From Escherichia coli (GTDB taxonomy: Bacteria > Pseudomonadota > Gammaproteobacteria > Enterobacterales > Enterobacteriaceae), in NCBI RefSeq assembly GCF_050320075.1, contig NZ_CP190018.1: DNA of 64,000 nucleotides. One strand, written 5' to 3'. The notes under the pieces are model-generated. The model was not told where the DNA came from and ran no database searches. It saw nothing but the letters and a program-made list of their open reading frames with translations. Positions within the stretch are counted from its first letter, which is position 1. Every line of letters begins with the position of its first letter. Shown here in pieces: positions 3,764 to 33,739 of the stretch. Both the position numbers and the translations under genes were made by a program.

Positions 3764-3764
3764 G

Positions 3765-4835: not shown

Positions 4836-5575
4836 GTAACTGGCCTTATCCCCGCATCGTCGCCCATCGTGGCGGCGGTAAACTGGCCCCGGAGAACACC
4901 CTGGCAGCAATCGACGTCGGGGCAAAATACGGTCATAAGATGATCGAATTTGACGCGAAGTTATCGAAAGATGGCGAGATCTTCCTGCTCCATGACGACA
5001 ATCTTGAACGCACCAGCAACGGCTGGGGCGTCGCGGGCGATCTGAACTGGCAGGATTTACTGCGCGTGGATGCAGGCAGTTGGTACAGCAAAGCGTTTAA
5101 AGGTGAGCCGCTACCGTTGCTTTCGCAGGTGGCGGAACGCTGTCGCGAACACGGGATGATGGCGAATATCGAAATCAAACCCACCACTGGCACCGGGCCA
5201 TTAACGGGCAAAATGGTGGCGCTGGCGGCACGCGAACTGTGGGCCGATATGACGCCGCCGCTGCTGTCATCGTTTGAGATTGATGCTTTAGAAGCTGCAC
5301 AACAGGCTGCACCGGAACTGCCGCGCGGTTTGTTGTTGGATGAGTGGCGCGACGACTGGCGAGAACTGACCGCGCGACTGGGCTGCGTCTCTATTCATCT
5401 CAATCATAAGTTGCTTGATAAAGCGCGAGTGATGCAGTTGAAAGACGCCGGATTACGGATTCTGGTTTATACCGTCAATAAACCCCAGCGCGCGGCAGAG
5501 TTGCTGCGCTGGGGCGTGGATTGCATCTGCACCGATGCGATTGACGTGATTGGTCCGAACTTTACGGCCCAATAG
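4832..5575 (+). CDS. ugpQ: glycerophosphodiester phosphodiesterase
   Basis: 247 aa; start overlaps ugpC stop; length and sequence match UgpQ. Confidence 0.95.
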
Positions 5576-6002
5576 TTTTCAACGGAATATCAGGCTGCGG
5601 CGTGCTGGGCTGATTCAGCATGTCGCCGTTTCTCCTCTCCGGCAACATATGCTGCTGATTCAACGGACTATCCGGATTACGGTTGCTGTTTAACATCCCG
5701 CCGTTGGTGTTGGGCAGCATTTGCTGCCGGGCGGGATTTCGCTCCCCCGGCTGTGACTGCAACACCCGCTGAGAATTATTGTTGATCTGGTTTTCTAAAT
5801 GCTGCTGTTGCAACTGCGTTTGCGTTTTCAGTTGCTGATTCAGCATCCCTTTTTGCTGGATTTGCTGCGTTTGCATTTGAGTCTGCATCCGCTGCTGGCT
5901 GGGGATCTGATATCCCGGCTGGTTGGGGTTGTTCAGAGTATTAATGGGCTGTGCAAAGCCGACAAACGGCAGGAGTGCCGTCAAAAGCAGAAGTCGTTTC
6001 AT
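5562..6002 (-). CDS. yhhA: secreted Gln-rich protein YhhA
   Basis: 146 aa with signal peptide and Q-rich repeats; convergent with ugpQ, 3' ends overlap by 14 nt. Confidence 0.85.
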
Positions 6003-6121
6003 CGCGTATCCTCCTCTGAAGATATTCTTTAAGTTTACTCGCTTCCCGGCAAAACGATGATTAATTCAGAGTTATATACCAGGCTTAGCTGGGGTTGCCC
6101 CTTAATCTCTGGAGAATAACG

Positions 6122-7864
6122 ATGATAAAACCGACGTTTTTACGCCGGGTAGCCATTGCTGCTCTGCTCTCAGGAAGTTGTTTTAGCGCCGCCGCCGCGC
6201 CTCCTCCGCCACCTGTTTCTTATGGCGTGGAGGAAGATGTCTTCCATCCGGTACGCGCGAAACAGGGGATGGTGGCGTCTGTAGATGCTACTGCCACTCA
6301 GGTGGGCGTGGATATCCTCAAGGAGGGCGGGAATGCCGTTGATGCTGCCGTGGCGGTGGGCTACGCGCTGGCGGTAACGCATCCGCAGGCGGGGAATCTG
6401 GGCGGCGGTGGTTTTATGCTGATCCGCTCGAAAAATGGCAATACCACCGCTATCGATTTCCGCGAAATGGCACCCGCCAAAGCGACCCGCGATATGTTCC
6501 TTGATGATCAGGGTAACCCGGACAGCAAAAAATCACTCACTTCGCATCTGGCCTCCGGTACGCCCGGTACGGTAGCAGGTTTCTCGCTGGCGTTGGATAA
6601 ATACGGCACCATGCCGTTGAACAAAGTGGTGCAACCGGCGTTTAAACTGGCACGCGATGGTTTTATCGTTAACGACGCGTTGGCTGACGATCTCAAAACC
6701 TACGGTAGCGAAGTGTTGCCGAATCACGAAAACAGCAAGGCTATCTTCTGGAAAGAGGGCGCGCCGCTGAAAAAGGGCGACAAGCTGGTGCAGGCGAACC
6801 TGGCAAAGAGCCTGGAGATGATTGCCGAAAACGGCCCGGACGAATTCTACAAAGGCACGATAGCGGAACAGATTGCCCAGGAGATGCAGAAAAACGGTGG
6901 CTTGATCACTAAAGAAGATTTAGCGGCGTATAAAGCGGTCGAACGTACACCGATTAGCGGCGATTATCGCGGGTATCAGGTTTACTCCATGCCACCGCCA
7001 TCTTCCGGCGGGATCCATATCGTACAAATCCTCAATATTCTGGAAAACTTCGATATGAAGAAATACGGCTTTGGCAGCGCCGACGCGATGCAAATCATGG
7101 CAGAAGCTGAGAAATATGCCTACGCCGACCGCTCGGAATATCTTGGCGACCCGGATTTTGTCAAAGTTCCGTGGCAGGCGCTGACCAATAAAGCCTATGC
7201 CAAATCTATTGCCGATCAAATCGATATCAATAAAGCGAAGCCATCCAGCGAAATTCGCCCCGGCAAGCTTGCGCCTTATGAGAGTAATCAAACTACCCAT
7301 TACTCAGTGGTGGATAAAGACGGCAACGCGGTAGCGGTGACCTATACGCTGAACACCACCTTCGGGACGGGCATTGTCGCGGGCGAGAGCGGTATTCTGC
7401 TTAATAACCAGATGGATGATTTCTCCGCCAAACCTGGCGTACCGAACGTTTACGGGCTGGTGGGTGGTGACGCCAACGCGGTCGGGCCGAATAAACGCCC
7501 GCTGTCGTCGATGTCCCCAACCATTGTGGTGAAAGACGGTAAAACCTGGTTAGTGACTGGTAGCCCAGGCGGTAGCCGGATCATCACTACCGTGCTGCAA
7601 ATGGTGGTGAACAGCATCGATTATGGTATGAATGTCGCCGAAGCGACCAATGCACCGCGTTTCCACCATCAGTGGTTGCCGGACGAGCTGCGTGTCGAAA
7701 AAGGGTTTAGCCCGGATACGCTCAAGCTGCTGGAAGCAAAAGGTCAGAAAGTGGCGCTGAAAGAGGCGATGGGTAGTACACAAAGCATTATGGTTGGGCC
7801 GGACGGCGAGTTGTACGGCGCATCCGATCCGCGCTCGGTGGATGATTTAACGGCGGGTTATTAA
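6122..7864 (+). CDS. ggt: gamma-glutamyltranspeptidase
   Basis: 580 aa from ATG 6122 (MIKPTFLRRVAIAALLSG...); signal peptide; conserved TTHYSVVD autoprocessing region. Confidence 0.95.
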   Translation: MIKPTFLRRVAIAALLSGSCFSAAAAPPPPPVSYGVEEDVFHPVRAKQGMVASVDATATQVGVDILKEGGNAVDAAVAVGYALAVTHPQAGNLGGGGFMLIRSKNGNTTAIDFREMAPAKATRDMFLDDQGNPDSKKSLTSHLASGTPGTVAGFSLALDKYGTMPLNKVVQPAFKLARDGFIVNDALADDLKTYGSEVLPNHENSKAIFWKEGAPLKKGDKLVQANLAKSLEMIAENGPDEFYKGTIAEQIAQEMQKNGGLITKEDLAAYKAVERTPISGDYRGYQVYSMPPPSSGGIHIVQILNILENFDMKKYGFGSADAMQIMAEAEKYAYADRSEYLGDPDFVKVPWQALTNKAYAKSIADQIDINKAKPSSEIRPGKLAPYESNQTTHYSVVDKDGNAVAVTYTLNTTFGTGIVAGESGILLNNQMDDFSAKPGVPNVYGLVGGDANAVGPNKRPLSSMSPTIVVKDGKTWLVTGSPGGSRIITTVLQMVVNSIDYGMNVAEATNAPRFHHQWLPDELRVEKGFSPDTLKLLEAKGQKVALKEAMGSTQSIMVGPDGELYGASDPRSVDDLTAGY

Positions 7865-9960: not shown

Positions 9961-10050
9961 GCGATCAGGAAGACCCTCGCGGAGAACCTGAAAGCACGAC
10001 ATTGCTCACATTGCTTCCAGTATTACTTAGCCAGCCGGGTGCTGGCTTTT
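9961..10050 (+). ncRNA. ryhB: Fur-repressed small RNA RyhB
   Basis: Sequence gcgatcaggaagaccctcgcggagaacctgaaagcacgacattgctcacattgcttccagtattacttagccagccgggtgctggctttt matches RyhB as I recall it, ending in a terminator hairpin gccagccgggtgctggc plus T-run; sits between divergent yhhY and yhhX as in K-12. Confidence 0.9.
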
Positions 10051-10172
10051 TTTTTGATCTTTCGTTTTCAATTTATCCACGGGAAGTGCTTGTGTTCGTT
10101 ATGCGCACTCCAGTAGGAACCACGTCCGCTTTGCGCTAAGGTGTAAATAATCACCTTAAAAAGGACGAAATC

Positions 10173-11210
10173 ATGGTCATCAACTGCGCCTTTATTGGCT
10201 TCGGCAAAAGCACCACCCGTTACCATCTGCCGTATGTACTTAACCGCAAGGATAGCTGGCATGTCGCGCATATTTTTCGCCGCCATGCGAAGCCGGAAGA
10301 ACAGGCCCCCATTTACTCTCATATCCATTTCACCAGCGATCTCGACGAAGTACTAAACGATCCCGATGTTAAGCTGGTTGTGGTCTGCACCCATGCAGAC
10401 AGCCACTTCGAGTACGCGAAGCGCGCGCTGGAAGCCGGGAAAAATGTGCTGGTCGAAAAACCGTTCACCCCGACGCTTGCCCAGGCGAAGGAGCTGTTTG
10501 CGCTGGCGAAAAGCAAAGGACTGACCGTCACGCCGTATCAGAATCGTCGTTTTGATTCCTGCTTCCTGACAGCGAAAAAAGCGATTGAAAGTGGCAAGTT
10601 GGGAGAGATTGTCGAAGTGGAAAGCCATTTTGACTATTACCGCCCGGTGGCAGAAACCAAACCTGGGCTGCCGCAGGATGGCGCGTTCTATGGTCTTGGT
10701 GTGCATACGATGGACCAGATTATTTCTCTGTTCGGTCGCCCGGATCACGTCGCTTATGACATCCGCAGCCTGCGTAATAAAGCCAATCCTGACGACACCT
10801 TTGAAGCGCAGCTGTTTTATGGCGACCTGAAAGCCATCGTCAAAACCAGCCATCTGGTGAAAATCGATTATCCGAAATTTATCGTTCACGGTAAGAAAGG
10901 TTCGTTTATTAAATACGGTATCGACCAGCAGGAAACCAGCCTCAAGGCTAATATTATGCCGGGCGAACCGGGATTCGCAGCGGATGATTCGGTCGGTGTG
11001 CTGGAGTATGTCAATGACGAGGGTGTGACGGTCAGAGAAGAGATGAAGCCGGAGATGGGCGATTACGGGCGCGTTTATGATGCGTTGTATCAAACCATCA
11101 CCAACGGTGCGCCAAATTACGTCAAGGAATCTGAAGTTCTTACCAATCTGGAAATCCTTGAACGAGGATTTGAGCAAGCCTCTCCCTCCACAGTGACTCT
11201 CGCGAAGTAA
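10173..11210 (+). CDS. yhhX: Gfo/Idh/MocA-family oxidoreductase
   Basis: 345 aa; N-terminal Rossmann motif AFIGFGKS; length matches YhhX. Confidence 0.9.
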   Translation: MVINCAFIGFGKSTTRYHLPYVLNRKDSWHVAHIFRRHAKPEEQAPIYSHIHFTSDLDEVLNDPDVKLVVVCTHADSHFEYAKRALEAGKNVLVEKPFTPTLAQAKELFALAKSKGLTVTPYQNRRFDSCFLTAKKAIESGKLGEIVEVESHFDYYRPVAETKPGLPQDGAFYGLGVHTMDQIISLFGRPDHVAYDIRSLRNKANPDDTFEAQLFYGDLKAIVKTSHLVKIDYPKFIVHGKKGSFIKYGIDQQETSLKANIMPGEPGFAADDSVGVLEYVNDEGVTVREEMKPEMGDYGRVYDALYQTITNGAPNYVKESEVLTNLEILERGFEQASPSTVTLAK

Positions 11211-11332
11211 GTTTGATGGCCCCTCGAATAGTTCAATTTTTTTGAACAGAGGGGTCAATTTTCACCCTCTATCATCCCAGGCGGATCGGGTCCACACTAA
11301 GCCCATCGAAATCATTCAGGGGGCGAATAAAA

Positions 11333-12028
11333 ATGATCTACTTACGCAAAGCAAATGAACGTGGTCATGCAAATCATGGCTGGCTGGACTCCTGGCATAC
11401 TTTCTCTTTTGCCAACTATTACGATCCGAACTTTATGGGCTTCTCCGCGCTGCGCGTGATTAACGACGACGTGATTGAAGCAGGGCAGGGCTTCGGCACT
11501 CACCCGCATAAAGATATGGAAATTTTGACCTACGTGCTGGAAGGTACTGTTGAGCATCAGGACAGCATGGGCAATAAAGAGCAGGTTCCGGCGGGTGAGT
11601 TCCAGATTATGAGTGCGGGTACGGGTATTCGTCACTCAGAGTACAACCCAAGCAGCACCGAGCGTCTGCATCTGTATCAAATCTGGATCATGCCTGAAGA
11701 AAACGGTATTACGCCGCGTTATGAACAGCGTCGCTTCGATGCCGTACAGGGCAAACAGCTGGTGCTCTCGCCGGATGCGCGTGATGGTTCGCTGAAAGTG
11801 TATCAGGATATGGAACTGTACCGCTGGGCGCTGGTAAAAGATGAGCAGTCGGTGCATCAGATTGCCGCTGAACGCCGCGTCTGGATTCAGGTGGTGAAAG
11901 GCAATGTCACCATTAACGGCGTGAAAGCCTCGACCAGCGATGGTCTGGCAATCTGGGATGAGCAGGCAATCTCCATTCATGCGGATAGCGACAGCGAAGT
12001 GTTACTGTTCGATCTGCCGCCGGTTTAA
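11333..12028 (+). CDS. yhhW: pirin-like quercetin 2,3-dioxygenase
   Basis: 231 aa; cupin metal-binding motif GFGTHPHKDMEILTYVLEG; length matches YhhW. Confidence 0.9.
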   Translation: MIYLRKANERGHANHGWLDSWHTFSFANYYDPNFMGFSALRVINDDVIEAGQGFGTHPHKDMEILTYVLEGTVEHQDSMGNKEQVPAGEFQIMSAGTGIRHSEYNPSSTERLHLYQIWIMPEENGITPRYEQRRFDAVQGKQLVLSPDARDGSLKVYQDMELYRWALVKDEQSVHQIAAERRVWIQVVKGNVTINGVKASTSDGLAIWDEQAISIHADSDSEVLLFDLPPV

Positions 12029-12251
12029 AACTCAACGGCATCTTTGAAGCCTGCCTTTTTGCAGGCTTCCTCACTCGCTCCGGTCGCGTGCTGATGTACG
12101 CTTCCGGGGTTTTGCCGCGTCGTTAGCACAATGCGATGCAATTGATTTAGTGTATATCTAATAATTGTAAACAAGCACTGTTTTCCCCGGGAAGGTTCTG
12201 ATGCGTCCGTGTTAAACTAAGAGAATCTATCTCTTTTGTACCTTCAGGACG

Positions 12252-13247
12252 ATGAAAAAGAAAAGACCCGTACTTCAGGATGTGGCTGACCGTGTAGGCG
12301 TGACCAAAATGACGGTCAGCCGTTTTTTACGCAACCCGGAGCAGGTTTCCGTCGCTCTACGCGGCAAGATTGCCGCCGCTCTTGATGAACTGGGTTATAT
12401 TCCCAATCGCGCGCCCGATATCCTCTCTAATGCCACCAGCCGGGCGATTGGCGTCCTGTTACCTTCTCTCACCAACCAGGTTTTCGCGGAAGTATTACGC
12501 GGAATCGAAAGCGTCACCGACGCGCACGGTTATCAAACTATGCTGGCGCACTACGGTTATAAACCGGAAATGGAGCAAGAACGCCTCGAATCAATGCTCT
12601 CATGGAATATCGATGGACTGATCCTCACCGAACGTACCCACACGCCACGCACCTTAAAGATGATTGAAGTGGCGGGGATTCCGGTGGTGGAGTTGATGGA
12701 CAGCAAGTCGCCGTGCCTCGATATTGCCGTCGGTTTTGATAACTTTGAAGCGGCACGCCAGATGACCACCGCCATTATTGCTCGCGGGCATCGCCACATT
12801 GCCTATCTCGGCGCACGTCTCGACGAACGTACTATCATCAAACAGAAGGGATACGAACAGGCGATGCTGGATGCAGGCCTGGTGCCGTATAGCGTGATGG
12901 TTGAGCAATCTTCTTCTTACTCTTCCGGTATTGAACTGATTCGCCAGGCGAGGCGGGAATATCCGCAGCTGGATGGCGTGTTCTGTACTAATGATGACCT
13001 GGCGGTCGGCGCGGCGTTTGAATGCCAGCGTCTGGGGTTGAAAGTTCCTGACGATATGGCGATTGCCGGTTTCCATGGTCATGACATTGGTCAGGTGATG
13101 GAACCACGGTTGGCGAGCGTACTGACGCCGCGTGAGCGGATGGGCAGTATTGGCGCTGAACGCCTGCTGGCGCGTATTCGTGGCGAATCTGTGACACCGA
13201 AAATGTTAGATTTAGGTTTCACCTTGTCACCGGGCGGATCTATTTAA
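12252..13247 (+). CDS. gntR: gluconate operon repressor, LacI family
   Basis: 331 aa; N-terminal HTH LQDVADRVGVTKMTVSRFL; followed by gntK and gntU. Confidence 0.95.
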   Translation: MKKKRPVLQDVADRVGVTKMTVSRFLRNPEQVSVALRGKIAAALDELGYIPNRAPDILSNATSRAIGVLLPSLTNQVFAEVLRGIESVTDAHGYQTMLAHYGYKPEMEQERLESMLSWNIDGLILTERTHTPRTLKMIEVAGIPVVELMDSKSPCLDIAVGFDNFEAARQMTTAIIARGHRHIAYLGARLDERTIIKQKGYEQAMLDAGLVPYSVMVEQSSSYSSGIELIRQARREYPQLDGVFCTNDDLAVGAAFECQRLGLKVPDDMAIAGFHGHDIGQVMEPRLASVLTPRERMGSIGAERLLARIRGESVTPKMLDLGFTLSPGGSI

Positions 13248-13325
13248 GCCCACAAATTTGAAGTAGCTCACACTTATACACTTAAGGCACGGATGGATAT
13301 TGCTTCTGATATTGTCCGGCCGGAC

Positions 13326-13356
13326 AATGTTACCGATAACAGTTACCCGTAACATT
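13326..13356 (+). promoter_or_regulatory. tandem GntR operators in the gntK promoter
   Basis: aatgttaccgataacagttacccgtaacat contains two overlapping palindromes of the ATGTTACCxxTAACAT type about 30 bp upstream of the gntK start. Confidence 0.6.
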
Positions 13357-13385
13357 TTTATTTCTTGTATTGTGGGGGCACCACT

Positions 13386-13913
13386 TTGAGCACGACTAAC
13401 CATGATCACCACATTTACGTCTTGATGGGCGTATCGGGCAGCGGCAAATCTGCGGTCGCCAGTGAAGTGGCGCATCAACTTCATGCCGCGTTTCTTGATG
13501 GCGATTTCCTCCATCCAAGGCGCAATATCGAAAAAATGGCGTCTGGTGAACCGCTGAATGACGACGATCGCAAACCGTGGTTGCAGGCGCTGAACGACGC
13601 CGCGTTTGCTATGCAGCGCACCAATAAAGTGTCGCTGATCGTCTGTTCTGCACTGAAAAAACACTATCGCGACTTGCTGCGTGAAGGTAATCCGAATCTC
13701 TCGTTCATCTACCTGAAAGGCGATTTTGATGTGATTGAAAGCCGCCTGAAAGCGCGCAAAGGCCATTTCTTTAAAACCCAAATGTTGGTGACGCAGTTTG
13801 AAACGCTGCAGGAGCCGGGTGCGGACGAAACCGATGTACTGGTGGTGGATATCGATCAACCGCTGGAAGGTGTTGTGGCAAGCACCATTGAGGTTATTAA
13901 AAAAGGCAAATAA
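13386..13913 (+). CDS. gntK: gluconokinase
   Basis: 175 aa from TTG 13386 (STTNHDHHIYVLMGVSGSGKSAVA); P-loop GVSGSGKS. Confidence 0.92.
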   Translation: MSTTNHDHHIYVLMGVSGSGKSAVASEVAHQLHAAFLDGDFLHPRRNIEKMASGEPLNDDDRKPWLQALNDAAFAMQRTNKVSLIVCSALKKHYRDLLREGNPNLSFIYLKGDFDVIESRLKARKGHFFKTQMLVTQFETLQEPGADETDVLVVDIDQPLEGVVASTIEVIKKGK

Positions 13914-13916
13914 GTA

Positions 13917-15257
13917 GTGACTACATTAACGCTTGTTTTAACAGCAGTAGGGTCTGTTTTACTGCTGCTGTTTTTAGTCATGAAGGCGCGTATGCACGCT
14001 TTCCTGGCTTTGATGGTGGTGTCCATGGGGGCTGGCCTTTTTTCCGGTATGCCGCTCGATAAAATCGCAGCGACGATGGAAAAAGGGATGGGAGGCACCC
14101 TCGGCTTCCTGGCGGTGGTTGTCGCCCTGGGAGCTATGTTTGGCAAGATCTTACATGAAACCGGCGCAGTCGATCAGATTGCCGTCAAAATGCTCAAATC
14201 CTTCGGTCACAGCCGCGCGCATTATGCCATCGGCCTTGCGGGGCTGGTCTGTGCGCTACCGCTGTTCTTTGAAGTGGCGATTGTTCTGCTGATTAGCGTT
14301 GCTTTCTCAATGGCGCGCCACACCGGTACGAACCTGGTGAAGCTGGTAATCCCATTATTCGCAGGCGTGGCGGCCGCGGCTGCGTTCCTGGTGCCTGGAC
14401 CAGCGCCAATGCTGCTGGCATCGCAGATGAATGCCGACTTTGGCTGGATGATCCTGATTGGCCTGTGTGCGGCAATTCCGGGAATGATTATTGCCGGGCC
14501 GCTGTGGGGTAATTTCATCAGCCGCTACGTGGAGCTGCATATTCCTGACGACATCAGCGAACCACATCTCGGCGAAGGCAAAATGCCATCTTTCGGATTC
14601 AGCCTGTCGCTGATCCTGTTGCCGCTGGTGCTGGTAGGGCTGAAAACCATTGCCGCGCGTTTTGTGCCAGAAGGCTCTACCGCTTACGAATGGTTCGAGT
14701 TTATTGGTCATCCGTTTACCGCGATTCTGGTTGCTTGTCTGGTGGCGATTTATGGCCTGGCAATGCGTCAGGGCATGCCAAAAGACAAAGTGATGGAGAT
14801 TTGCGGTCACGCGCTGCAACCGGCGGGGATCATTCTGCTGGTGATTGGTGCAGGCGGCGTGTTCAAACAGGTGCTGGTTGACTCTGGCGTAGGTCCGGCA
14901 CTGGGCGAAGCGTTAACCGGCATGGGCCTGCCGATTGCCATCACCTGCTTCGTGCTGGCAGCTGCAGTGCGCATCATTCAGGGTTCTGCCACCGTTGCCT
15001 GTTTAACGGCGGTGGGACTGGTGATGCCGGTTATTGAACAACTGAACTACTCCGGTGCGCAAATGGCGGCGCTGTCGATTTGTATCGCCGGTGGTTCGAT
15101 TGTTGTCAGCCACGTTAACGACGCCGGTTTCTGGTTGTTCGGTAAATTTACCGGCGCGACCGAAGCCGAAACGCTGAAAACCTGGACCATGATGGAAACC
15201 ATACTCGGCACTGTTGGTGCCATCGTTGGGATGATTGCGTTCCAGCTGTTGAGTTAA
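13917..15257 (+). CDS. gntU: low-affinity gluconate:H+ symporter
   Basis: 446 aa from GTG 13917 (MTTLTLVLTAVGSVLLLLF...); GntP-family membrane protein; intact in this sequence. Confidence 0.92.
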   Translation: MTTLTLVLTAVGSVLLLLFLVMKARMHAFLALMVVSMGAGLFSGMPLDKIAATMEKGMGGTLGFLAVVVALGAMFGKILHETGAVDQIAVKMLKSFGHSRAHYAIGLAGLVCALPLFFEVAIVLLISVAFSMARHTGTNLVKLVIPLFAGVAAAAAFLVPGPAPMLLASQMNADFGWMILIGLCAAIPGMIIAGPLWGNFISRYVELHIPDDISEPHLGEGKMPSFGFSLSLILLPLVLVGLKTIAARFVPEGSTAYEWFEFIGHPFTAILVACLVAIYGLAMRQGMPKDKVMEICGHALQPAGIILLVIGAGGVFKQVLVDSGVGPALGEALTGMGLPIAITCFVLAAAVRIIQGSATVACLTAVGLVMPVIEQLNYSGAQMAALSICIAGGSIVVSHVNDAGFWLFGKFTGATEAETLKTWTMMETILGTVGAIVGMIAFQLLS

Positions 15258-15268
15258 TTACTGCGACA

Positions 15269-15296
15269 AATTACTGCGAGCTTGCTCGCAGTAATT
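15269..15296. promoter_or_regulatory. perfect 13-bp-arm palindrome at the gntU / insertion junction (terminator or operator)
   Basis: aattactgcgagc-tt-gctcgcagtaatt starts 12 nt after the gntU stop; preceded by a direct half-repeat ttactgcgac. Confidence 0.4.
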
Positions 15297-15396
15297 CATT
15301 TCTCTTATCTCCTCTCTTCATCTTTTTGATCTCTCTCGCAAATTTACCTGCTAATAATCCGTTCTAATCACTGCCTAAAGATCGCAGGAGATAAAG

Positions 15397-17493
15397 ATGG
15401 AAAAGCACGGAGCTGAATTGCTTTTACAGCGGATGTTAGGAAATACCACCGCTACTTTCAGGGAAGGGCAATGGGAAGCCATAGATGCAGTGGTTAATCA
15501 GCGGCGAAAACTGCTGGTTGTACAGCGCACCGGCTGGGGGAAAAGTGCCGTGTACTTCATCGCCAGTAAAATCTTCCGCGATCGCGGCGCTGGCCCGACA
15601 ATTATCATCTCTCCTTTGCTTGCCCTGATGCGTAACCAGGTTGCCGCCGCTGAACGGTTAGGTATTACGGCTGAAACGTTGAATTCTACAAACAGGGAAG
15701 AATGGCAGCGCATTAGCGATAAGTTGCTGCAAGGTGAGGTCGATTGCTTGCTGGTTTCCCCGGAACGTTTGGCAAACCAGGACTTTATCGAAACGGTTTT
15801 ATATCCTATAGCCGATCGTATTGGCTTGCTTGTGGTCGACGAGGCGCACTGCATCTCTGATTGGGGCCACGATTTTCGCCCGGATTACCGACGTATATTA
15901 GATATTTTGCGCCAACTGCCTGCGAATACCCCTGTTCTGGGTACAACCGCGACAGCGAATAACCGTGTTGTTGAGGATATCCGTCAGCAATTGGGTGACA
16001 TTGTGATTCAGCGTGGAACGCTGGCTCGCGAAAGTTTGGCGCTTGATGCCTTAGTCTTAGGAGAACAGTCATCCCGTCTGGCATGGTTAGCAACGGTTAT
16101 CCCTCAGTTTTCCAAATCGGGAATTGTTTATACCCTGACGACTCGCGATGCTGAACTTGTCGCCGAGTGGTTAAGGAAAAATGGTATCAGTGCATTTGCT
16201 TACTACAGCGGCGTGACTTGTGAAGGCGCGGAAGATTCTAATACTGCCAGGGAATATCTGGAGCAGGCACTGCTGGCAAATAAAATCAAAGTGCTGGTCG
16301 CGACGACGGCATTAGGTATGGGGTTTGATAAACCTGATTTAGGTTTCGTCATTCATTATCAGATGCCGGGGTCTATTGTCGGTTACTACCAACAGGTGGG
16401 GCGTGCCGGGCGTGCTATAGATTCCGCAGTTGGCATATTGCTTTGTGGTGGTGAAGACCGCGCTATTCATCAATTCTTCCGTGAAAGCGCCTTTCCTGCG
16501 GAGGCGCAAATTCATGAAATACTCAACGTACTTAGCGAGAATGACGGTCTTACCCTACGAGGCATTGAACAACGGACGAATCTTCGTTATGGGCAAATAG
16601 AAAAAGCACTGAAATTATTGGTAGCGGAAAATCCATCGCCTGTGGTGTATACCGAGAAATTATGGCGCAGAACTATCGTCAGTTTTTCTCCTGATCATGA
16701 ACGAATTAACCATTTGATGAATCAGAGAAAAAGTGAACTGGCAGACGTTGAAAGCTATATCACGACCAAGGAGTGCAAAATGCAATTTCTGCGCCGTGCA
16801 CTCGATGAGCCAAGTGCCGAACGTTGTGGTAAATGTAGCAGTTGTCTTCAGCATCCGTTATTGTCGCCCGACATTGATAGCGGCTTACTCCATGCGGCAA
16901 ATTTATTTATTAAACACGCTGACCTGCCGTTAAATCTCAATAAACAGGTGGCAGCTGGGGCTTTTACGCAATACGGATTTAAAGGGAACTTGCCTGCGGG
17001 TTTACAAGGATCTACGGGGCGAATCCTTTCTCGTTGGGGAGATTCCGGGTGGGGAAAGCAGGTAGCACAGGAGAAAAAAACGGGGCGCTTAAGTGATGAG
17101 CTGGTAGAAGCATGTGCGGAAATGGTTCGCCAACGCTGGAATCCGCATCCTGAACCAACCTGGGTATGCTGCGTTCCTTCATTAAGGCACCTCGACCTGG
17201 TTCCTGATTTTGCCCGGCGACTGGCGGCGAAACTTGGCTTACCTTTTATTGATGCCATTGAAAAAGTCGTGGACAATCCACCGCAGAAAATGCAGCAAAA
17301 CCGTTTTCACCAGTGTCAAAATCTCGACGGGGCGTTTGTGATTACCCCTCCTTTGATGCCAGGTCCGGCGTTGCTGGTTGACGATATCGTGGATTCTGCA
17401 TGGACGCTGACAGTTCTGACAGCACTGTTACGCCAGGCAGGTTGCCCGACGGTTTATCCTCTTGCCCTTGCTTCTACCTCGGTAAAAAATTGA
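15397..17493 (+). CDS. RecQ-family DEAH helicase with C-terminal CxxC and phosphoribosyltransferase-like domain (PsyrT/RqlH-like candidate toxin or effector)
   Basis: 698 aa; Walker A QRTGWGKSAV, DEAH box VVDEAHCISDWGHDFRPDYRR, helicase-C motif YQQVGRAGR, then CGKCSSC and a PRTase-type nucleotide loop LLVDDIVDSAWT near the C-terminus; SD gcaggag upstream of the ATG. Confidence 0.85.
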   Translation: MEKHGAELLLQRMLGNTTATFREGQWEAIDAVVNQRRKLLVVQRTGWGKSAVYFIASKIFRDRGAGPTIIISPLLALMRNQVAAAERLGITAETLNSTNREEWQRISDKLLQGEVDCLLVSPERLANQDFIETVLYPIADRIGLLVVDEAHCISDWGHDFRPDYRRILDILRQLPANTPVLGTTATANNRVVEDIRQQLGDIVIQRGTLARESLALDALVLGEQSSRLAWLATVIPQFSKSGIVYTLTTRDAELVAEWLRKNGISAFAYYSGVTCEGAEDSNTAREYLEQALLANKIKVLVATTALGMGFDKPDLGFVIHYQMPGSIVGYYQQVGRAGRAIDSAVGILLCGGEDRAIHQFFRESAFPAEAQIHEILNVLSENDGLTLRGIEQRTNLRYGQIEKALKLLVAENPSPVVYTEKLWRRTIVSFSPDHERINHLMNQRKSELADVESYITTKECKMQFLRRALDEPSAERCGKCSSCLQHPLLSPDIDSGLLHAANLFIKHADLPLNLNKQVAAGAFTQYGFKGNLPAGLQGSTGRILSRWGDSGWGKQVAQEKKTGRLSDELVEACAEMVRQRWNPHPEPTWVCCVPSLRHLDLVPDFARRLAAKLGLPFIDAIEKVVDNPPQKMQQNRFHQCQNLDGAFVITPPLMPGPALLVDDIVDSAWTLTVLTALLRQAGCPTVYPLALASTSVKN

Positions 17494-18695
17494 TGAATCT
17501 TTCAGCCAATGCACAAGCGACTCTCCTGCTAACCAGCGATTTTTCTCGCGCGGCGGCGAGTGAGTATAAACCTCTTAGTAATAGTGAATGGGGGAAGTTT
17601 GCATTATGGCTGAAGCACCAACGTATCAGTCCCGCCGATCTTCTGGTGCCGCAACCGCAAGAGAAACTTACAGGCTGGAGCGATCCGCGTATTTCTCAGG
17701 AGCGTATTCTTGGCTTGCTGGCGCGTGGTCATAGTCTGGCGTTGGCGGTAGATAAGTGGCAACGCGCCGGTTTATGGATCTTAACCCGCGGAGATGCCGA
17801 TTATCCCGTTCGCTTGAAAAACCGATTGCGAACGGATGCACCTCCCGTTTTATTTGGCTGCGGGAATAAAGCATTACTGCAAGCGGAAGGTATGGCGATT
17901 GTTGGCTCGCGAGATGCTCCGACTGCCGATTTGCGCTATACCCAACAACTGGCAGCGAAACTGGCCCAACAGGGGATTTGCGTTATCTCTGGTGGTGCGC
18001 GAGGTATTGATGAATGTGCAATAGCGTCGGCGCTGGAGGCCGGAGGAACTGCCGTTGGCGTATTAGCTGATAGCTTGTTAAAAACGAGCACGTTAGTGAA
18101 ATGGCGTGAAGGGCTTATAGCAGGCAACCTGGTGTTGATTTCACCGTTTTACCCAGAGGTACGTTTCACCGTCGGCAATGCGATGGCGCGGAATAAATAT
18201 ATTTATTGCCTTGCTGAAAGCGCAATGGTTGTACGTGCGGGAATGACCGGTGGAACGATAACCGGAGCGATGGAGGCGTTAAAACATCAGTGGCTGCCTG
18301 TTCTGGTTAAACCAAATCAGGATGTGCAATCAGCCAATTCACGATTAGTAGAAAATGGGGCGTCATGGAGTGCTGAACAGGCTGAGAATGTGACGATCAG
18401 ACTGCCAGACGTTCCTGGGCTGATGTATGACAGAGCACTCCGTAACGCTCAACCAGAATTGTTTTCGCTGCACGAAGATGACGCAAATTACGCAGTGATG
18501 CCCTCGCATACCCCTGTCGATTTTTATCAACTTTTTGTGGCGGAACTGGCGATCCTTGCAAAGGAATCGATAAGTATTGAAAGGCTGGCGTCTTGTACTG
18601 GTTTAACCATCGAACAAATTAGTATGTGGCTGAACCGCGCAGAAGAAGAGGGAAGGGTTATCCGATTGGGCGAAGGTCATTATCAGTTCAGGTAA
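17493..18695 (+). CDS. DprA/Smf-like Rossmann-fold protein (PsyrA/RqlI-like candidate antitoxin or partner)
   Basis: 400 aa from ATG 17493 (MNLSANAQATLLL...); DprA signature VISGGARGIDECAIASALEAGGTAVGVLADSL and NAMARNKYIYCLAESAMVV; the ATG overlaps the helicase TGA by one nt. Confidence 0.8.
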   Translation: MNLSANAQATLLLTSDFSRAAASEYKPLSNSEWGKFALWLKHQRISPADLLVPQPQEKLTGWSDPRISQERILGLLARGHSLALAVDKWQRAGLWILTRGDADYPVRLKNRLRTDAPPVLFGCGNKALLQAEGMAIVGSRDAPTADLRYTQQLAAKLAQQGICVISGGARGIDECAIASALEAGGTAVGVLADSLLKTSTLVKWREGLIAGNLVLISPFYPEVRFTVGNAMARNKYIYCLAESAMVVRAGMTGGTITGAMEALKHQWLPVLVKPNQDVQSANSRLVENGASWSAEQAENVTIRLPDVPGLMYDRALRNAQPELFSLHEDDANYAVMPSHTPVDFYQLFVAELAILAKESISIERLASCTGLTIEQISMWLNRAEEEGRVIRLGEGHYQFR

Positions 18696-18698
18696 TAA

Positions 18699-18734
18699 AA
18701 CAGGTGCCGCCTCTGGTTGTGTGCAGCACCTGTT
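18699..18734. terminator. bidirectional hairpin between the DprA-like gene and convergent yhgN
   Basis: aacaggtgc ...18-nt loop... gcacctgtt, flanked by A-run and T-run, placed between the two convergent stop codons. Confidence 0.45.
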
Positions 18735-18740
18735 TGAACC

Positions 18741-19334
18741 TTACCCCTTCATCCACATTCGAATGCCGTCGAGGAACATCTGGGTTGCCATCATCACCAG
18801 AATCAATCCCATCAGGCGTTCAAGTGCGTTCACCCCTTTCTCGCCCAGCAGACGTAAAAATAGCGAAGACTGTAGCAGGATGACAAAGGTGCCACCCCAG
18901 GCCAGCAGCAGAGCAATTACCAAATGTCCCATCTGATTCGGGTACTGATGAGACAACAACATCAGCGTGGCGAGAATAGTCGGCCCGGCGACTAACGGAA
19001 TTGCCAACGGCACGATAAACGGCTCTTCACCTGCCGGAAGCCCGCTGCTATTTCCTGAAGCACTGGGGAAAATCATCTTAATGGCGATCAGAAACAGAAT
19101 GATGCCGCCAGAAATGGAGACGGTTTCTGCCCGCAGGCTAAGAAATGCCAGAATTTTCTCACCCGCAAACAGGAACACCAGCATCACCAGGAGAGCAATA
19201 AGCAACTCTCGCACCATGATTGCCCGCCGTCTTTTCGGTTCAGTATGTTTCAGTACGGACATGAAAATAGGTAGGTTTCCGAGCGGATCCATAATCAGGA
19301 TCAATAAAACTGCTGCAGAAATGATTTCATTCAT
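18741..19334 (-). CDS. yhgN: MarC-family inner membrane protein
   Basis: 197 aa hydrophobic ORF MNEIISAAVLLILIMDPLGNLPIF...; length matches YhgN. Confidence 0.9.
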   Translation of the reverse strand: MNEIISAAVLLILIMDPLGNLPIFMSVLKHTEPKRRRAIMVRELLIALLVMLVFLFAGEKILAFLSLRAETVSISGGIILFLIAIKMIFPSASGNSSGLPAGEEPFIVPLAIPLVAGPTILATLMLLSHQYPNQMGHLVIALLLAWGGTFVILLQSSLFLRLLGEKGVNALERLMGLILVMMATQMFLDGIRMWMKG

Positions 19335-19525
19335 AACTCAAATTCCCTGATAATTGCCGCGGACTTTCTGCGTGCTAACAAAGCAGGATAAGTCGCATTA
19401 CTGATGGCTTCGCTATCATTGATTAATTTCACTTGCGACTTTGGCTGCTTTTTGTATGGTGAAAGATGTGCCAAGAGGAGACCGGCACATTTATACAGCA
19501 CACATCTTTGCAGGAAAAAACGCTT

Positions 19526-20629
19526 ATGAAAAATGTTGGTTTTATCGGCTGGCGCGGTATGGTCGGCTCCGTTCTCATGCAACGCATGGTTGAAGAGCGC
19601 GACTTCGACGCCATTCGCCCTGTCTTCTTTTCTACTTCTCAGCTTGGTCAGGCTGCGCCGTCTTTTGGCGGAACCACTGGCACACTTCAGGATGCCTTTG
19701 ATCTGGAGGCGCTAAAGGCCCTCGATATCATTGTGACCTGTCAGGGCGGCGATTATACCAACGAAATCTATCCAAAGCTTCGTGAAAGCGGATGGCAAGG
19801 TTACTGGATTGACGCAGCATCGTCTCTGCGCATGAAAGATGACGCCATCATCATTCTTGACCCCGTCAATCAGGACGTCATTACCGACGGATTAAATAAT
19901 GGCATCAGGACTTTTGTTGGCGGTAACTGTACCGTAAGCCTGATGTTGATGTCGTTGGGTGGTTTATTCGCCAATGATCTTGTTGATTGGGTGTCCGTTG
20001 CAACCTACCAGGCCGCTTCCGGCGGTGGTGCGCGACATATGCGTGAGTTATTAACCCAGATGGGCCATCTGTATAGCCATGTGGCAGATGAACTCGCGAC
20101 CCCGTCCTCTGCTATTCTCGATATCGAACGCAAAGTCACAACCTTAACCCGTAGCGGTGAGCTGCCGGTGGATAACTTTGGCGTGCCGCTGGCGGGTAGC
20201 CTGATTCCGTGGATCGACAAACAGCTTGATAACGGTCAGAGCCGCGAAGAGTGGAAAGGGCAGGCGGAAACCAACAAGATCCTCAACACATCTTCCGTAA
20301 TTCCGGTAGATGGTTTATGTGTGCGTGTCGGGGCATTGCGCTGCCACAGCCAGGCATTCACTATTAAATTGAAAAAAGATGTGTCTATTCCGACCGTGGA
20401 AGAACTGCTGGCTGCGCACAATCCGTGGGCGAAAGTCGTTCCGAACGATCGGGAAATCACTATGCGTGAGCTAACCCCAGCTGCCGTTACCGGCACGCTG
20501 ACCACGCCGGTAGGCCGCCTGCGTAAGCTGAATATGGGACCAGAGTTCCTGTCAGCCTTTACCGTGGGCGACCAGCTGCTGTGGGGGGCCGCGGAGCCGC
20601 TGCGTCGGATGCTTCGTCAACTGGCGTAA
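19526..20629 (+). CDS. asd: aspartate-semialdehyde dehydrogenase
   Basis: 367 aa from ATG 19526 ([21 protein letters not shown]...); active-site region [11 protein letters not shown]. Confidence 0.96.
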
Positions 20630-20901
20630 TCTTTATTCATTAAATCTGGGGCGCGATGCCGCCCCTGCTAGTGCGTAATACAGGAGTAAGCGCAGATGTT
20701 TCATGATTTACCGGGAGTTAAATAGAGCATTGGCTATTCTTTAAGGGTGGCTGAATACATGAGTATTCACAGCCTTACCTGAAGTGAGGACGACGCAGAG
20801 AGGATGCACAGAGTGCTGCGCCGTTCAGGTCAAAAAAATGTCACAACCAGAAGTCAAAAATCCAGTTGGATGGGGTGACACAATAAAACAGGAAGACAAG
20901 C

Positions 20902-23088
20902 ATGTCCGATCGTATCGATAGAGACGTGATTAACGCGCTAATTGCAGGCCATTTTGCGGATCCTTTTTCCGTACTGGGGATGCATAAAACCACCGCGGGA
21001 CTGGAAGTCCGTGCCCTTTTACCCGACGCTACCGATGTGTGGGTGATTGAACCGAAAACCGGGCGCAAACTCGCAAAACTGGAGTGTCTCGACTCCCGTG
21101 GATTCTTTAGCGGTGTCATTCCGCGACGTAAGAATTTTTTCCGCTATCAGTTGGCTGTTGTCTGGCATGGTCAGCAAAACCTGATAGATGATCCTTACCG
21201 TTTTGGTCCGCTAATCCAGGAAATGGATGCCTGGCTATTATCTGAAGGTACTCACCTGCGCCCGTATGAAACCTTAGGCGCGCATGCAGATACTATGGAT
21301 GGCGTCACAGGTACGCGTTTTTCTGTCTGGGCTCCAAACGCCCGTCGGGTCTCGGTGGTTGGGCAATTCAACTACTGGGACGGTCGCCGTCATCCGATGC
21401 GCCTGCGTAAAGAGAGCGGCATCTGGGAACTGTTTATCCCTGGGGCGCATAACGGTCAGCTCTATAAATATGAGATGATTGATGCCAATGGCAACTTGCG
21501 TCTGAAGTCCGACCCTTATGCCTTCGAAGCGCAAATGCGCCCGGAAACCGCGTCTCTTATTTGCGGTCTGCCGGAAAAGGTTGTGCAGACTGAAGAGCGC
21601 AAAAAAGCGAATCAGTTTGATGCGCCAATCTCTATTTATGAAGTTCACCTGGGCTCCTGGCGTCGCCACACCGACAACAATTTCTGGTTGAGCTACCGCG
21701 AGCTGGCCGATCAACTGGTGCCTTATGCTAAATGGATGGGCTTTACCCACCTCGAACTGCTGCCCATTAACGAGCATCCCTTCGATGGCAGTTGGGGTTA
21801 TCAGCCAACCGGCCTGTATGCACCGACCCGCCGTTTTGGTACTCGCGACGACTTCCGTTATTTCATTGATGCCGCACACGCAGCTGGTCTGAACGTGATT
21901 CTCGACTGGGTGCCAGGCCACTTCCCGACCGATGACTTTGCGCTTGCCGAATTTGATGGCACGAACTTGTATGAACACAGCGATCCGCGCGAAGGCTATC
22001 ATCAGGACTGGAATACGCTGATCTACAACTATGGTCGCCGTGAAGTCAGTAACTTCCTTGTCGGTAACGCGCTTTACTGGATTGAACGTTTTGGTATTGA
22101 TGCGCTGCGCGTCGATGCGGTGGCGTCAATGATTTATCGCGACTACAGCCGTAAAGAGGGGGAGTGGATCCCGAACGAATTTGGCGGGCGCGAGAATCTT
22201 GAAGCGATTGAATTCTTGCGTAATACCAACCGTATTCTTGGTGAGCAGGTTTCCGGTGCGGTGACAATGGCGGAGGAGTCTACCGATTTCCCTGGCGTTT
22301 CTCGTCCGCAGGACATGGGCGGTCTGGGCTTCTGGTACAAGTGGAACCTGGGATGGATGCATGACACCCTGGACTACATGAAGCTCGACCCGGTTTATCG
22401 TCAGTATCATCACGATAAACTGACCTTCGGGATGCTCTACAACTACACTGAAAACTTCGTCCTGCCGTTGTCGCATGATGAAGTGGTCCACGGTAAAAAA
22501 TCGATTCTCGACCGGATGCCGGGCGACGCATGGCAGAAATTCGCTAACCTGCGCGCCTACTACGGCTGGATGTGGGCATTCCCGGGCAAGAAACTGCTGT
22601 TCATGGGGAACGAATTTGCCCAGGGCCGCGAGTGGAACCATGACGCCAGCCTCGACTGGCATCTGTTGGAAGGCGGCGATAACTGGCACCACGGTGTCCA
22701 GCGTCTGGTGCGCGATCTGAACCTCACCTACCGCCACCATAAAGCAATGCATGAACTGGATTTTGACCCGTACGGCTTTGAATGGCTGGTGGTGGATGAC
22801 AAAGAACGCTCGGTGCTGATCTTTGTGCGTCGCGATAAAGAGGGTAACGAAATCATCGTTGCCAGTAACTTTACTCCGGTGCCGCGTCATGATTATCGCT
22901 TCGGCATTAACCAGCCGGGCAAATGGCGTGAAATCCTTAATACCGATTCCATGCACTATCACGGCAGTAATGTCGGCAATGGCGGCACGGTACACAGCGA
23001 TGAGATTGCCAGCCACGGTCGTCAGCATTCATTAAGCCTGACACTACCACCGCTGGCCACTATTTGGCTGGTTCGGGAGGCAGAATGA
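20902..23088 (+). CDS. glgB: 1,4-alpha-glucan branching enzyme
   Basis: 728 aa; first gene of the glgBXCAP cluster. Confidence 0.97.
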
Positions 23089-25058
23089 CACAACTCGCCA
23101 TTGGCAAACCCGCACCCCTCGGCGCGCATTACGACGGTCAGGGCGTCAACTTCACACTTTTCTCCGCTCATGCCGAGCGGGTAGAACTGTGTATCTTTGA
23201 CGCCAATGGCCAGGAACATCGCTATGACTTGCCAGGGCACAGTGGCGACATTTGGCACGGTTATCTGCCGGATGCGCGTCCGGGTTTGCGTTATGGTTAT
23301 CGCGTTCATGGCCCCTGGCAACCCGCCGAGGGGCATCGCTTTAACCCGGCGAAGTTGTTGATTGATCCTTGCGCGCGGCAAATTGACGGGGAATTTAAAG
23401 ATAACCCGCTGCTGCACGCCGGTCATAATGAACCTGACTATCGCGACAACGCCGCCATTGCGCCGAAATGCGTAGTGGTGGTTGATCACTATGACTGGGA
23501 AGATGATGCCCCGCCGCGCACGCCGTGGGGCAGCACCATCATTTATGAAGCCCATGTCAAAGGATTAACGTACCTGCATCCGGAGATCCCGGTCGAGATC
23601 CGTGGCACTTATAAAGCCCTGGGGCATCCGGTGATGATCAACTATTTGAAACAGTTGGGCATTACCGCGCTGGAACTGCTGCCGGTGGCGCAGTTTGCCA
23701 GCGAACCACGCCTGCAACGTATGGGTCTAAGTAACTACTGGGGTTATAACCCGGTGGCGATGTTTGCGCTGCATCCGGCGTATGCCTGCTCCCCAGAAAC
23801 GGCGCTGGATGAGTTTCGCGATGCAATCAAAGCACTGCATAAAGCGGGTATCGAAGTCATTCTTGATATCGTGCTCAACCATAGTGCGGAACTGGACCTC
23901 GACGGTCCGTTATTCTCTCTGCGTGGGATCGACAACCGTAGCTATTATTGGATAAGAGAAGACGGCGATTATCACAACTGGACCGGTTGTGGCAACACGC
24001 TCAATTTGAGTCATCCGGCGGTAGTGGATTATGCCAGCGCTTGCCTGCGTTATTGGGTAGAAACCTGCCACGTCGATGGTTTCCGCTTTGATCTGGCGGC
24101 AGTCATGGGCCGTACGCCAGAGTTCCGTCAGGATGCGCCGTTGTTTACCGCTATCCAGAACTGCCCGGTGCTCTCGCAGGTGAAGTTAATTGCTGAACCG
24201 TGGGATATTGCTCCTGGTGGTTATCAGGTGGGAAATTTCCCGCCGCTGTTTGCCGAGTGGAACGATCATTTCCGCGATGCTGCCCGTCGTTTCTGGCTTC
24301 ATTATGATTTGCCTCTGGGGGCGTTTGCCGGGCGTTTTGCTGCCTCCAGCGATGTTTTTAAACGTAATGGTCGTCTGCCGAGTGCCGCGATTAATCTCGT
24401 CACCGCGCATGACGGTTTTACGCTTCGCGACTGCGTTTGCTTCAACCATAAACATAATGAAGCAAACGGAGAAGAAAATCGCGACGGGACCAACAACAAT
24501 TATAGTAACAATCATGGTAAAGAAGGGTTAGGCGGTACTCTTGACCTGGTTGAACGGCGTCGCGACAGCATTCACGCCCTGTTAACAACGTTGTTGCTCT
24601 CCCAGGGTACGCCGATGTTACTGGCCGGTGACGAACATGGTCACAGCCAGCATGGCAATAACAATGCCTACTGTCAGGATAACCAATTAACCTGGTTGGA
24701 CTGGTCGCAGGCAAGCAGTGGTTTAACCGCATTTACCGCCGCGTTAATCCATCTGCGCAAGCGCATTCCCGCTTTGGTGGAGAATCGCTGGTGGGAAGAA
24801 GGCGACGGCAATGTCCGTTGGCTAAATCGATATGCTCAACCTTTAAGCACGGATGAGTGGCAAAACGGGCCGAAACAGCTGCAAATTCTGCTCTCGGATC
24901 GCTTTTTGATCGCAATTAACGCCACGCTTGAGGTAACAGAGATTGTTTTACCTGCTGGGGAGTGGCACGCCATTCCCCCATTCGCTGGAGAGGATAACCC
25001 AGTGATTACGGCTGTCTGGCAGGGACCTGCACACGGATTGTGTGTGTTCCAGAGATGA
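23085..25058 (+). CDS. glgX: glycogen debranching enzyme
   Basis: 657 aa from ATG 23085 ([20 protein letters not shown]...); ATGA overlap with the glgB stop. Confidence 0.95.
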
Positions 25059-27804: not shown

Positions 27805-30270
<2,466 letters not shown>

Positions 30271-30286
30271 GTTCGCTAAAAAACAG

Positions 30287-30314
30287 AACGGGGCCAAAAG
30301 GTCCCGTTTTTTTT
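30287..30314 (+). terminator. rho-independent terminator of glgP
   Basis: aacggggcc-aaaa-ggtcccgtt hairpin followed by an 8-T run. Confidence 0.65.
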
Positions 30315-30386
30315 CGCCTTTATTTAGGAAAAGTGTCCAGAGGGGGCGAGGGTTATCGGGGAGTATAATTTCGCCATTCAGCAAGA

Positions 30387-31904: not shown

Positions 31905-31929
31905 CGCTCGAGAGAAAGGAATCAGCGCA

Positions 31930-32922: not shown

Positions 32923-32924
32923 AG

Positions 32925-33525: not shown

Positions 33526-33576
33526 TTCCTTGAATCAAAAAGTAGGTCAGATTGTTGACGAAGTGCGCTTTGTTTA

Positions 33577-33675
33577 TGCCGGATGCTGCGTGAACGCCTT
33601 ATTTTGTCTACAAAATCATGCAAATTCAATATATTGCATAAACCACGTAGGCCTGATAAGCGTAGCGCATCAGGC
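33577..33675. repeat. REP (palindromic unit) elements
   Basis: gccggatgctgcgtgaacgccttat (partial REP) and gtaggcctgataagcgtagcgcatcaggc (canonical REP) followed by a T-run. Confidence 0.65.
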
Positions 33676-33699
33676 AGTTTTTTTGTTTATCATCAGTCT

Positions 33700-33723
33700 C
33701 AGGTCAGATTGAAATCTGACCTG
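33700..33723 (-). terminator. hairpin immediately downstream of glpD
   Basis: caggtcagat-tgaa-atctgacctg, a perfect 10-bp stem 17 nt after the glpD stop. Confidence 0.45.
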
Positions 33724-33739
33724 ACCACCTTATGTTAAA

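Follow-up and report, generated by a model that had tools for sequence, protein, structure and literature searches.

The segment between gntU and yhgN of an Escherichia coli chromosome is very probably the rqlH-rqlI (PsyrTA) operon, a two-gene toxin-antitoxin-like module

We analysed a stretch of 64,000 nucleotides of E. coli DNA (contig NZ_CP190018.1 of assembly GCF_050320075.1; hereafter the window), in which a two-gene segment lies between the core genes gntU and yhgN, and we conclude that this segment is very probably the E. coli chromosomal rqlH-rqlI operon, known also as PsyrTA, a two-gene toxin-antitoxin-like module. An earlier description of this DNA (the original prediction), made from the raw sequence alone, had recognised the family, the domain layout and the exact boundaries, and its proposal of a PsyrTA/RqlHI-type module is borne out by the full-length profile matches and protein identities given below. 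The rqlHI locus, its toxicity and the neutralisation of that toxicity are already known, and the segment itself is not new: all of this, with the role of the operon in gut and urinary-tract fitness, has been in print since 2015, and PsyrTA is what PADLOC and DefenseFinder routinely call the pair. The interest that remains lies in the biochemistry of the family and in the evolutionary pattern of its fixed site. The main features of the segment are:

15258 to 18740, no strand assigned: whole rqlHI (PsyrTA) cassette, 3483 bp (alignment with the empty-site strain 7FA and with MG1655)
15397 to 17493, plus strand: rqlH (psyrT), toxin gene, 698 amino acids (PADLOC, NCBIfam, Pfam, motifs, identity with CFT073)
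16921 to 17490, plus strand: part of rqlH encoding the phosphoribosyltransferase (PRTase) domain, residues 509-698 (domain limits and mutagenesis from PMC4670107; fold confirmed in this analysis)
17493 to 18695, plus strand: rqlI (psyrA), antitoxin gene, 400 amino acids (PADLOC, Pfam, identity with CFT073, homologous loci)

Identity of the segment with RqlHI/PsyrTA

In strain CFT073 the gene order is gntK, gntU, the gene for a 698-residue helicase, a DprA-like gene, yhgN and asd, so that the pair occupies the same site as in the window, and the proteins of the two strains are identical at 688 of 698 residues (99%) for RqlH and 391 of 400 (98%) for RqlI. The residues mutated in the published work on RqlH (K49, D148 and D663) stand at the same positions in the window protein. 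RqlH matches the PADLOC PsyrT profile with E=0 and 1064 bits (residues 3-697 on positions 5-687 of 689), and RqlI matches PsyrA at 3.5e-200 (residues 1-400 on 1-397 of 398).

The operon was characterised by Russell and Mulvey in 2015 (PLoS Pathog, PMC4670107), mainly in the extraintestinal pathogenic E. coli strain F11, with rqlI also deleted in CFT073 and 536. In their study rqlH and rqlI were co-transcribed in F11, while MG1655 lacks both genes; F11 RqlH without RqlI, tested in MG1655, caused growth inhibition, SOS induction, filamentation and a higher mutation rate. This toxicity requires the loop of the PRTase domain that binds phosphoribosyl pyrophosphate (PRPP), although the PRTase domain alone is insufficient; helicase-dead forms (K49A, D148A) were more toxic still, and their toxicity was suppressed by D663A. 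RqlI neutralises the toxicity, and it co-immunoprecipitates with RqlH only if the PRTase domain is kept (PMC4670107). The same family is the PsyrTA of Sberro et al. (2013). Its toxin-antitoxin behaviour came to light through shotgun-cloning bias and direct tests.

The helicase core of RqlH (approximately residues 19-356) is of the RecQ family of superfamily 2, with GWGKS at 46-50 (including K49) and DEAH at 148. Pfam returned DEAD (4.9e-25), Helicase_C (4.2e-13) and a weak RecQ_Zn_bind match (0.0014), and the NCBIfam recQ_fam model (TIGR00614) was passed at 252.8 bits against a cutoff of 219.8. RecQ matches in the PDB span residues 4-356 only; beyond them lies a RecQ-type zinc motif, C460/C477/C480/C483 (C-x16-C-x2-C-x2-C). 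The 698-residue RecQ-family helicase with a C-terminal cysteine motif and PRTase domain that had been read from the sequence therefore stands, on Pfam, NCBIfam and motif evidence and on the homologue, PDB-profile and predicted-fold evidence for the PRTase domain given below.

Could these simply be an additional RecQ and an additional DprA, ordinary proteins of DNA repair and competence? The RefSeq product names would say so, and the RecQ-family subfamily model does pass its cutoff. However, the equivalog models all fall short: canonical RecQ was rejected at 296 bits against 640 (TIGR01389) and 225 against 1015 (NF008279), and canonical DprA, for RqlI, at 101.8 bits against 191 (TIGR00732) and 79.9 against 495 (NF008007). 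Moreover the helicase carries a PRTase domain, a combination that Russell and Mulvey called unique among known helicases (PMC4670107), and the published toxicity does not fit a plain repair role; we regard this explanation as extremely improbable. The RefSeq names themselves, ‘RecQ family ATP-dependent DNA helicase’ and ‘DNA-processing protein DprA’, mask the identity of the system.

The PRTase domain of RqlH

The Pfam Pribosyltran match to RqlH was marginal (independent E-value 0.0084), and the PRTase assignment was therefore checked in three further ways. Most database homologues of RqlH residues 490-698 carry a precomputed PF00156 assignment. A profile built from 35 such homologues matched in the PDB almost only PRPP-loop enzymes (PRPP synthetase, HGPRT), aligned over VLLVDD(I/V)VDSGWT; in the window protein this loop reads VDDIVDS and includes D663 (DIVD at 663). 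An AlphaFold2 model of the domain, with a mean per-residue confidence (pLDDT) of 87 and a predicted template-modelling score (pTM) of 0.85, matched type-I PRTase folds only: APRT, Helicobacter pylori ComF, HGXPRT, PurF and ShosT. These homologue, profile and fold comparisons together identify the C-terminal domain of RqlH, as predicted from its sequence and modelled structure, as a PRTase with a PRPP-binding loop. Of the two partner domains of the original prediction, the DprA-like one was thus strong in the profile search itself (1.5e-49), whereas the PRTase, weak there, was then confirmed independently.

The rqlI gene and its start codon

RqlI matches Pfam DNA_processg_A (1.5e-49) and the SLOG family LDcluster4 (4e-11). 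It consists of a DprA-like Rossmann/SLOG domain at residues 89-296, with GGARGID at 167, followed by a C-terminal helix-turn-helix-like region. R140 and R233 correspond to two of the three arginines with which H. pylori DprA contacts single-stranded DNA (identified in PMC12961424), and at the third position RqlI has Met260.

The rqlI ATG (17493) overlaps the rqlH TGA as TGATG (TTGATGAAT), a junction which, on its sequence, is built for translational coupling. RefSeq instead starts rqlI at the ATG at 17400, giving a protein of 431 amino acids and a 94-nt overlap with rqlH (17400-17492 being extra). The PsyrA profile begins at residue 1 of the 400-residue form, and RqlI matches at 80 homologous loci start at residue 1-3 of that form, abutting the upstream stop. 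The profile span and the 80 loci therefore support the start at 17493, and RefSeq probably places it too far upstream. The coupled 400-residue DprA-like partner with GGARGID was accordingly described correctly from the outset.

Boundaries and surroundings of the cassette

Alignment with 7FA and MG1655 places the left edge of the cassette directly past the gntU stop (15257) and the right edge directly before the yhgN stop (18741), which are exactly the limits, 15258 and 18740, first given for the two-gene segment. In K-12 MG1655, where gntU and yhgN are adjacent as first stated, and in other empty-site strains, a spacer of 56 bp with a hairpin of its own lies between the two genes; in the alignment the cassette exactly replaces this spacer. 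The G+C content of the cassette (0.45-0.53) is not distinct from that of its surroundings. Further features at the locus are:

13917 to 15257, plus strand: gntU, left flanking core gene (annotated in RefSeq for strain CFSAN061763, whose locus is identical)
15269 to 15296, plus strand: terminator-like hairpin whose 13-bp arms pair perfectly, with a T-rich stretch after it (terminator scan, inverted-repeat search)
15386 to 15390, plus strand: Shine-Dalgarno sequence AGGAG, 6 nt 5′ of the rqlH ATG (direct sequence reading)
18698 to 18735, no strand assigned: hairpin in the gap where rqlI and yhgN converge; its loop is 12 nt long, and its arms of 13 nt are 92% complementary (inverted-repeat search)
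18741 to 19334, minus strand: yhgN, right flanking core gene (RefSeq annotation)

The hairpin at 15269-15296 sits just past gntU and is brought in by the cassette; we infer that it would act as a terminator. The one at 18698-18735 drew no call from the terminator scan and is possibly a bidirectional terminator, judging from its position between convergent genes. A scan for consensus sigma-70 promoters was negative throughout the 139 bp upstream of rqlH, 15297-15396 included; reading by eye, and not a scan call, gives a TGcTAATAAT extended -10-like element at 15349-15358. A tRNA search of 10000-24000 found none, a repeat search gave short chance pairs only and no direct repeats on either side of the cassette, and the cassette contains no integrase or mobility genes. 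These negative searches, with the chromosomal position of the cassette in every carrier, agree with the original prediction that the element is not self-mobile. No Rfam family turned up in 13000-21000, where a scan at E<=1 yielded just two sub-threshold chance matches.

In search of deletion scars we compared the 56-bp spacer with the cassette ends; the likeness is vague only (a hairpin, a CTCTCCTC motif and a tail rich in T) and favours neither gain nor loss.

Distribution and history of the cassette

Our survey covered 5426 complete E. coli genomes, with the full cassette counted at a coverage of at least 80%. The cassette was found in 1650 genomes, 1641 of them at that coverage (about 30%), always on the chromosome and as a rule once per genome; sampled cassette-free genomes show the 56-bp empty site. 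It is thus an island variable between strains, as first supposed, and not a fixture of all E. coli. Papers on the E. coli defensome annotate PsyrTA routinely; one found it enriched in phylogroup E2, and another reported conserved expression and a ‘similar genomic context’ between strains.

E. coli alleles of the cassette range from 100% down to about 97% identity, and that of the window is 100% identical to the allele of CFSAN061763 and others. Between the window and CFT073, synonymous divergence (dS) is 0.10 for rqlH and 0.05 for rqlI, and 0.106, 0.07 and 0.027 for gntU, yhgN and asd; the ratio of nonsynonymous to synonymous divergence (dN/dS) is 0.07 for rqlH and 0.20 for rqlI, and both genes are under purifying selection. 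Because the dS of the cassette equals that of its flanks, the cassette has co-diverged with its neighbourhood, as an old resident polymorphism and not a recent insertion. To call the segment an ‘insertion’, as was done at first, is therefore right in so far as occupied and empty sites exist side by side, but it may misstate the history of what appears to be an old resident.

A cross-species scan with RqlI as the query, taking one genome per species, returned 80 loci. In all 80 a homologue of RqlH (56-74% identity over the best segment) lies directly upstream of rqlI, abutting it or nearly so, and the two-gene layout is kept across phyla; the RqlH match is full-length in the great majority, a few being truncated by contig ends or disruption. 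None of these species has a close allele. The best alleles from outside E. coli are those of Silvania hatchlandensis (RqlI 61%, RqlH 72%) and Klebsiella grimontii (57% and 70%), both at the same site as in the window:

Positions 3762 to 7212 of locus L006: S. hatchlandensis rqlHI, same site as 15258 to 18740 of the window
Positions 3758 to 7564 of locus L008: K. grimontii rqlHI, same site as 15258 to 18740 of the window

Both pairs lie directly after gntU and before yhgN/asd, with flanks of 80-85% DNA identity and a cassette of 67-69%. Silvania has the core of the left-end hairpin, CTGCGAG..CTCGCAG, unchanged, and K. grimontii has a partly degenerate form of it. In K. grimontii yhgN is reduced to a 47-bp remnant. 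E. coli, Silvania and K. grimontii form one clade in neighbour-joining trees of both proteins, which, from trees without bootstrap, is only suggestive; in both trees the remaining Enterobacterales are interspersed among Vibrio, Shewanella and Psychrobacter.

This same-site pattern fits either an ancient insertion followed by many losses, or a site-specific hotspot. Because the junctions are the same, the hairpin core is partly kept, the three genera form one clade in both trees and the dS of the cassette equals that of its flanks, the site downstream of gntU could hold an ancient, vertically co-diverging RqlHI lineage of Escherichia, K. grimontii and Silvania, though we consider this rather unlikely. 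If it were true, the E. coli module would be a long-kept presence/absence polymorphism and not a horizontally shuffled defence islet; it could then serve mainly DNA metabolism or gut fitness, with a secondary part, or none, in phage defence, and the PRTase could act directly on DNA, or on a nucleobase where the helicase has unwound the DNA, by a chemistry not yet described.

Outside the gntU-site lineage, Chelonobacter oris (Pasteurellaceae; L019) and Providencia rettgeri (L020) carry the pair at about 3821-7299 of their respective loci, with RqlH and RqlI near-identical in the trees, a closeness in sequence that indicates a probable recent horizontal transfer of the pair. Near rqlHI in CFT073 (L004) we also noted a RelE/ParE toxin pseudogene adjoining nadS (678-995) and, between glpD and glgP, a fimbrial operon with three hypothetical genes (30197-39624).

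Inactivated copies of rqlH

Strain 319 has an intact rqlI but carries rqlH as a pseudogene (L003 1098-3222, matching 15397-17493 of the window). Its rqlH bears two lesions: one base pair is missing at nt 516, and 29 bp of the PRTase region are duplicated in tandem. The duplication occurs in 292 genomes, by name O157:H7 and relatives, and 309 genomes match the 66-bp stretch holding the 1-bp deletion at an identity of 99% or more. From these lesions and counts, about 19% of carriers (the O157:H7 lineage) therefore appear to be antitoxin-only in function, though defence finders count phylogroup E2 as PsyrTA-enriched. In E. coli NRZ94505 (NZ_OZ501598.1; L087 4552-6586) a chromosomal ISEcp1-blaCTX-M-15 unit, with IS26 and Tn3 remnants, lies inside rqlH; the Prokaryotic Genome Annotation Pipeline names the leftover PRTase fragment ‘ComF family protein’, and rqlI is intact. 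The antitoxin-only O157:H7 carriers and this CTX-M-15 unit could guide the choice of strains for work on the family.

Repeated loss of the toxin gene with the antitoxin gene kept is what is predicted for a toxin-antitoxin pair. It also agrees with the possibility that the pair is a selfish addiction module, which would persist since loss of rqlI is lethal while RqlH remains, and which would bring its host no benefit; the cloning-bias and direct tests of toxin-antitoxin behaviour agree with this too, as does the report of Millman et al. (2022, preprint) that a psyrA (antitoxin) deletion could not be transformed or obtained. However, the purifying selection seen on both genes acts across deep E. 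coli lineages, addiction would pay on a plasmid or mobile element, yet the cassette is found on neither, and the layout is kept in every one of the loci recovered across phyla. Pure addiction is thus, to our minds, improbable as an account of the module.

How RqlHI might act

In the window allele both proteins are intact and all of the mutagenised catalytic residues are kept. Work on ShosTA offers a model for what a toxin-antitoxin-like RqlHI might do: there, the PRTase must bind PRPP to be toxic, the DprA-like antitoxin binds single-stranded DNA and RecA, and the toxin is released by host shut-off or by phage single-stranded DNA; ShosTA is an abortive-infection system (PMC11961720, PMC12961424). 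By analogy, some disturbance would free the PRTase of RqlH. Candidate triggers are phage single-stranded DNA or replication intermediates, which might be sensed via the helicase or the DprA-like domain; alternatively, host gene expression might be shut off and a labile antitoxin lost. Once free, the PRTase might use PRPP to modify a nitrogen acceptor (a nucleobase, a nucleotide or a DNA base), and the outcome would be DNA damage and replication arrest, aborting infection.

Several points weigh against such a toxin-antitoxin role in defence. Russell and Mulvey themselves favour a cooperative physiological role on DNA over a pure toxin-antitoxin, and describe a complex regulation by the helicase domain (PMC4670107). 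PsyrTA of strain NILS69, expressed in K-12, gave no detectable phage protection and only a growth defect. Sequence searches of the PDB returned RecQ cores, DprA and ShosA only, with no solved structure of the RqlH PRTase domain or of RqlI. Finally, the trigger step is argued by analogy with ShosTA, yet ShosA does not bind ShosT while RqlI binds RqlH.

The first two of these points lead towards another explanation, a model proposed by Russell and Mulvey, that RqlHI is mainly a housekeeping-like module of DNA metabolism in which RqlH and RqlI act jointly on chromosomal or incoming DNA, for example when the helicase guides phosphoribosylation or when bases are salvaged at DNA ends, and in which toxicity reflects an imbalance without RqlI. 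The loss of fitness of rqlI mutants in gut and infection models, which was rescued by deletion of rqlH (PMC4670107), speaks for this model, which would also suit the fixed chromosomal site without mobile-element context, the co-divergence of the cassette with its flanks (dS of 0.10/0.05 against 0.03-0.11) and the presence of a related lineage at the same site in two other genera. Nevertheless, some 70% of E. coli genomes lack the cassette, and rqlH is inactivated in the O157:H7 lineage, so that the module is dispensable; a cloned PsyrTA system did protect against phages in the work of Millman et al., who list PsyrTA as a phage-defence system; and the pairing of a PRTase with a DprA-like protein recurs in ShosTA, a proven abortive-infection system. 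We therefore hold a mainly housekeeping role to be unlikely, and keep to the reading of RqlHI as a toxin-antitoxin-like module.

Comparison with known systems

The window holds the same operon as F11, CFT073 and 536, likewise between gntU and yhgN, with proteins of the same lengths (698 and 400 amino acids). From the CFT073 allele that of the window differs by only 10 and 9 substitutions, with a DNA divergence of about 3% that equals that of the flanking genes. For PsyrTA, named from Pseudomonas syringae, both window proteins match the profiles of the PADLOC/DefenseFinder models over their full length, and Pseudomonas PsyrTA loci (L058-L073) have the same layout, with the toxin gene 5′ and the stop and start codons abutting; between the Pseudomonas and the window proteins, however, identity is only about 60% for the toxin and 45% for the antitoxin. 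The stand-alone RqlH of Mycobacterium smegmatis shares the domain layout of the toxin, and was the source of the helicase-dead mutations transferred to the E. coli protein; it has, however, no RqlI partner, as is the case for nearly all Gram-positive homologues (PMC4670107).

Of the ComF/ComFC competence proteins, which have a PRTase fold, H. pylori ComF (PDB 7p0h) is one of the best structural matches of the RqlH PRTase domain, and the match that covers the most columns. DprA shares its Rossmann fold with RqlI; but there is no competence context at the locus, the equivalog cutoffs are not reached and Met260 takes the place of the third arginine. DpdF, of the Dpd system of 7-deazaguanine DNA modification, was rejected as an identity for RqlH, since NF041063 gave 149 bits against a cutoff of 550 and the neighbours are gntU and yhgN; the PADLOC DpdF matches of RqlH are much weaker than those of PsyrT, and mostly partial.

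ShosTA and RqlHI share a toxin with a PRPP-binding PRTase that causes DNA damage and filamentation, and a DprA-like antitoxin (PMC11961720, PMC12961424); RqlI matches the ShosA profile at 6.6e-27, and PDB entries 9vzo and 8zva at 1e-7. In ShosT, however, the PRTase is joined to an N-terminal hydrolase/pyrophosphatase domain and not to a RecQ helicase, and ShosTA is of type IV, its antitoxin not binding its toxin, while RqlI co-precipitates with RqlH via the PRTase domain. Membership of ShosTA was rejected on the RecQ core that fills the N-terminal 360 residues of RqlH, on the lack of a PADLOC ShosT match and on the match of RqlI to PsyrA at 3.5e-200 against 6.6e-27 for ShosA. The kinship with ShosTA that had been noticed from the sequence is thus real but secondary to that with PsyrTA.

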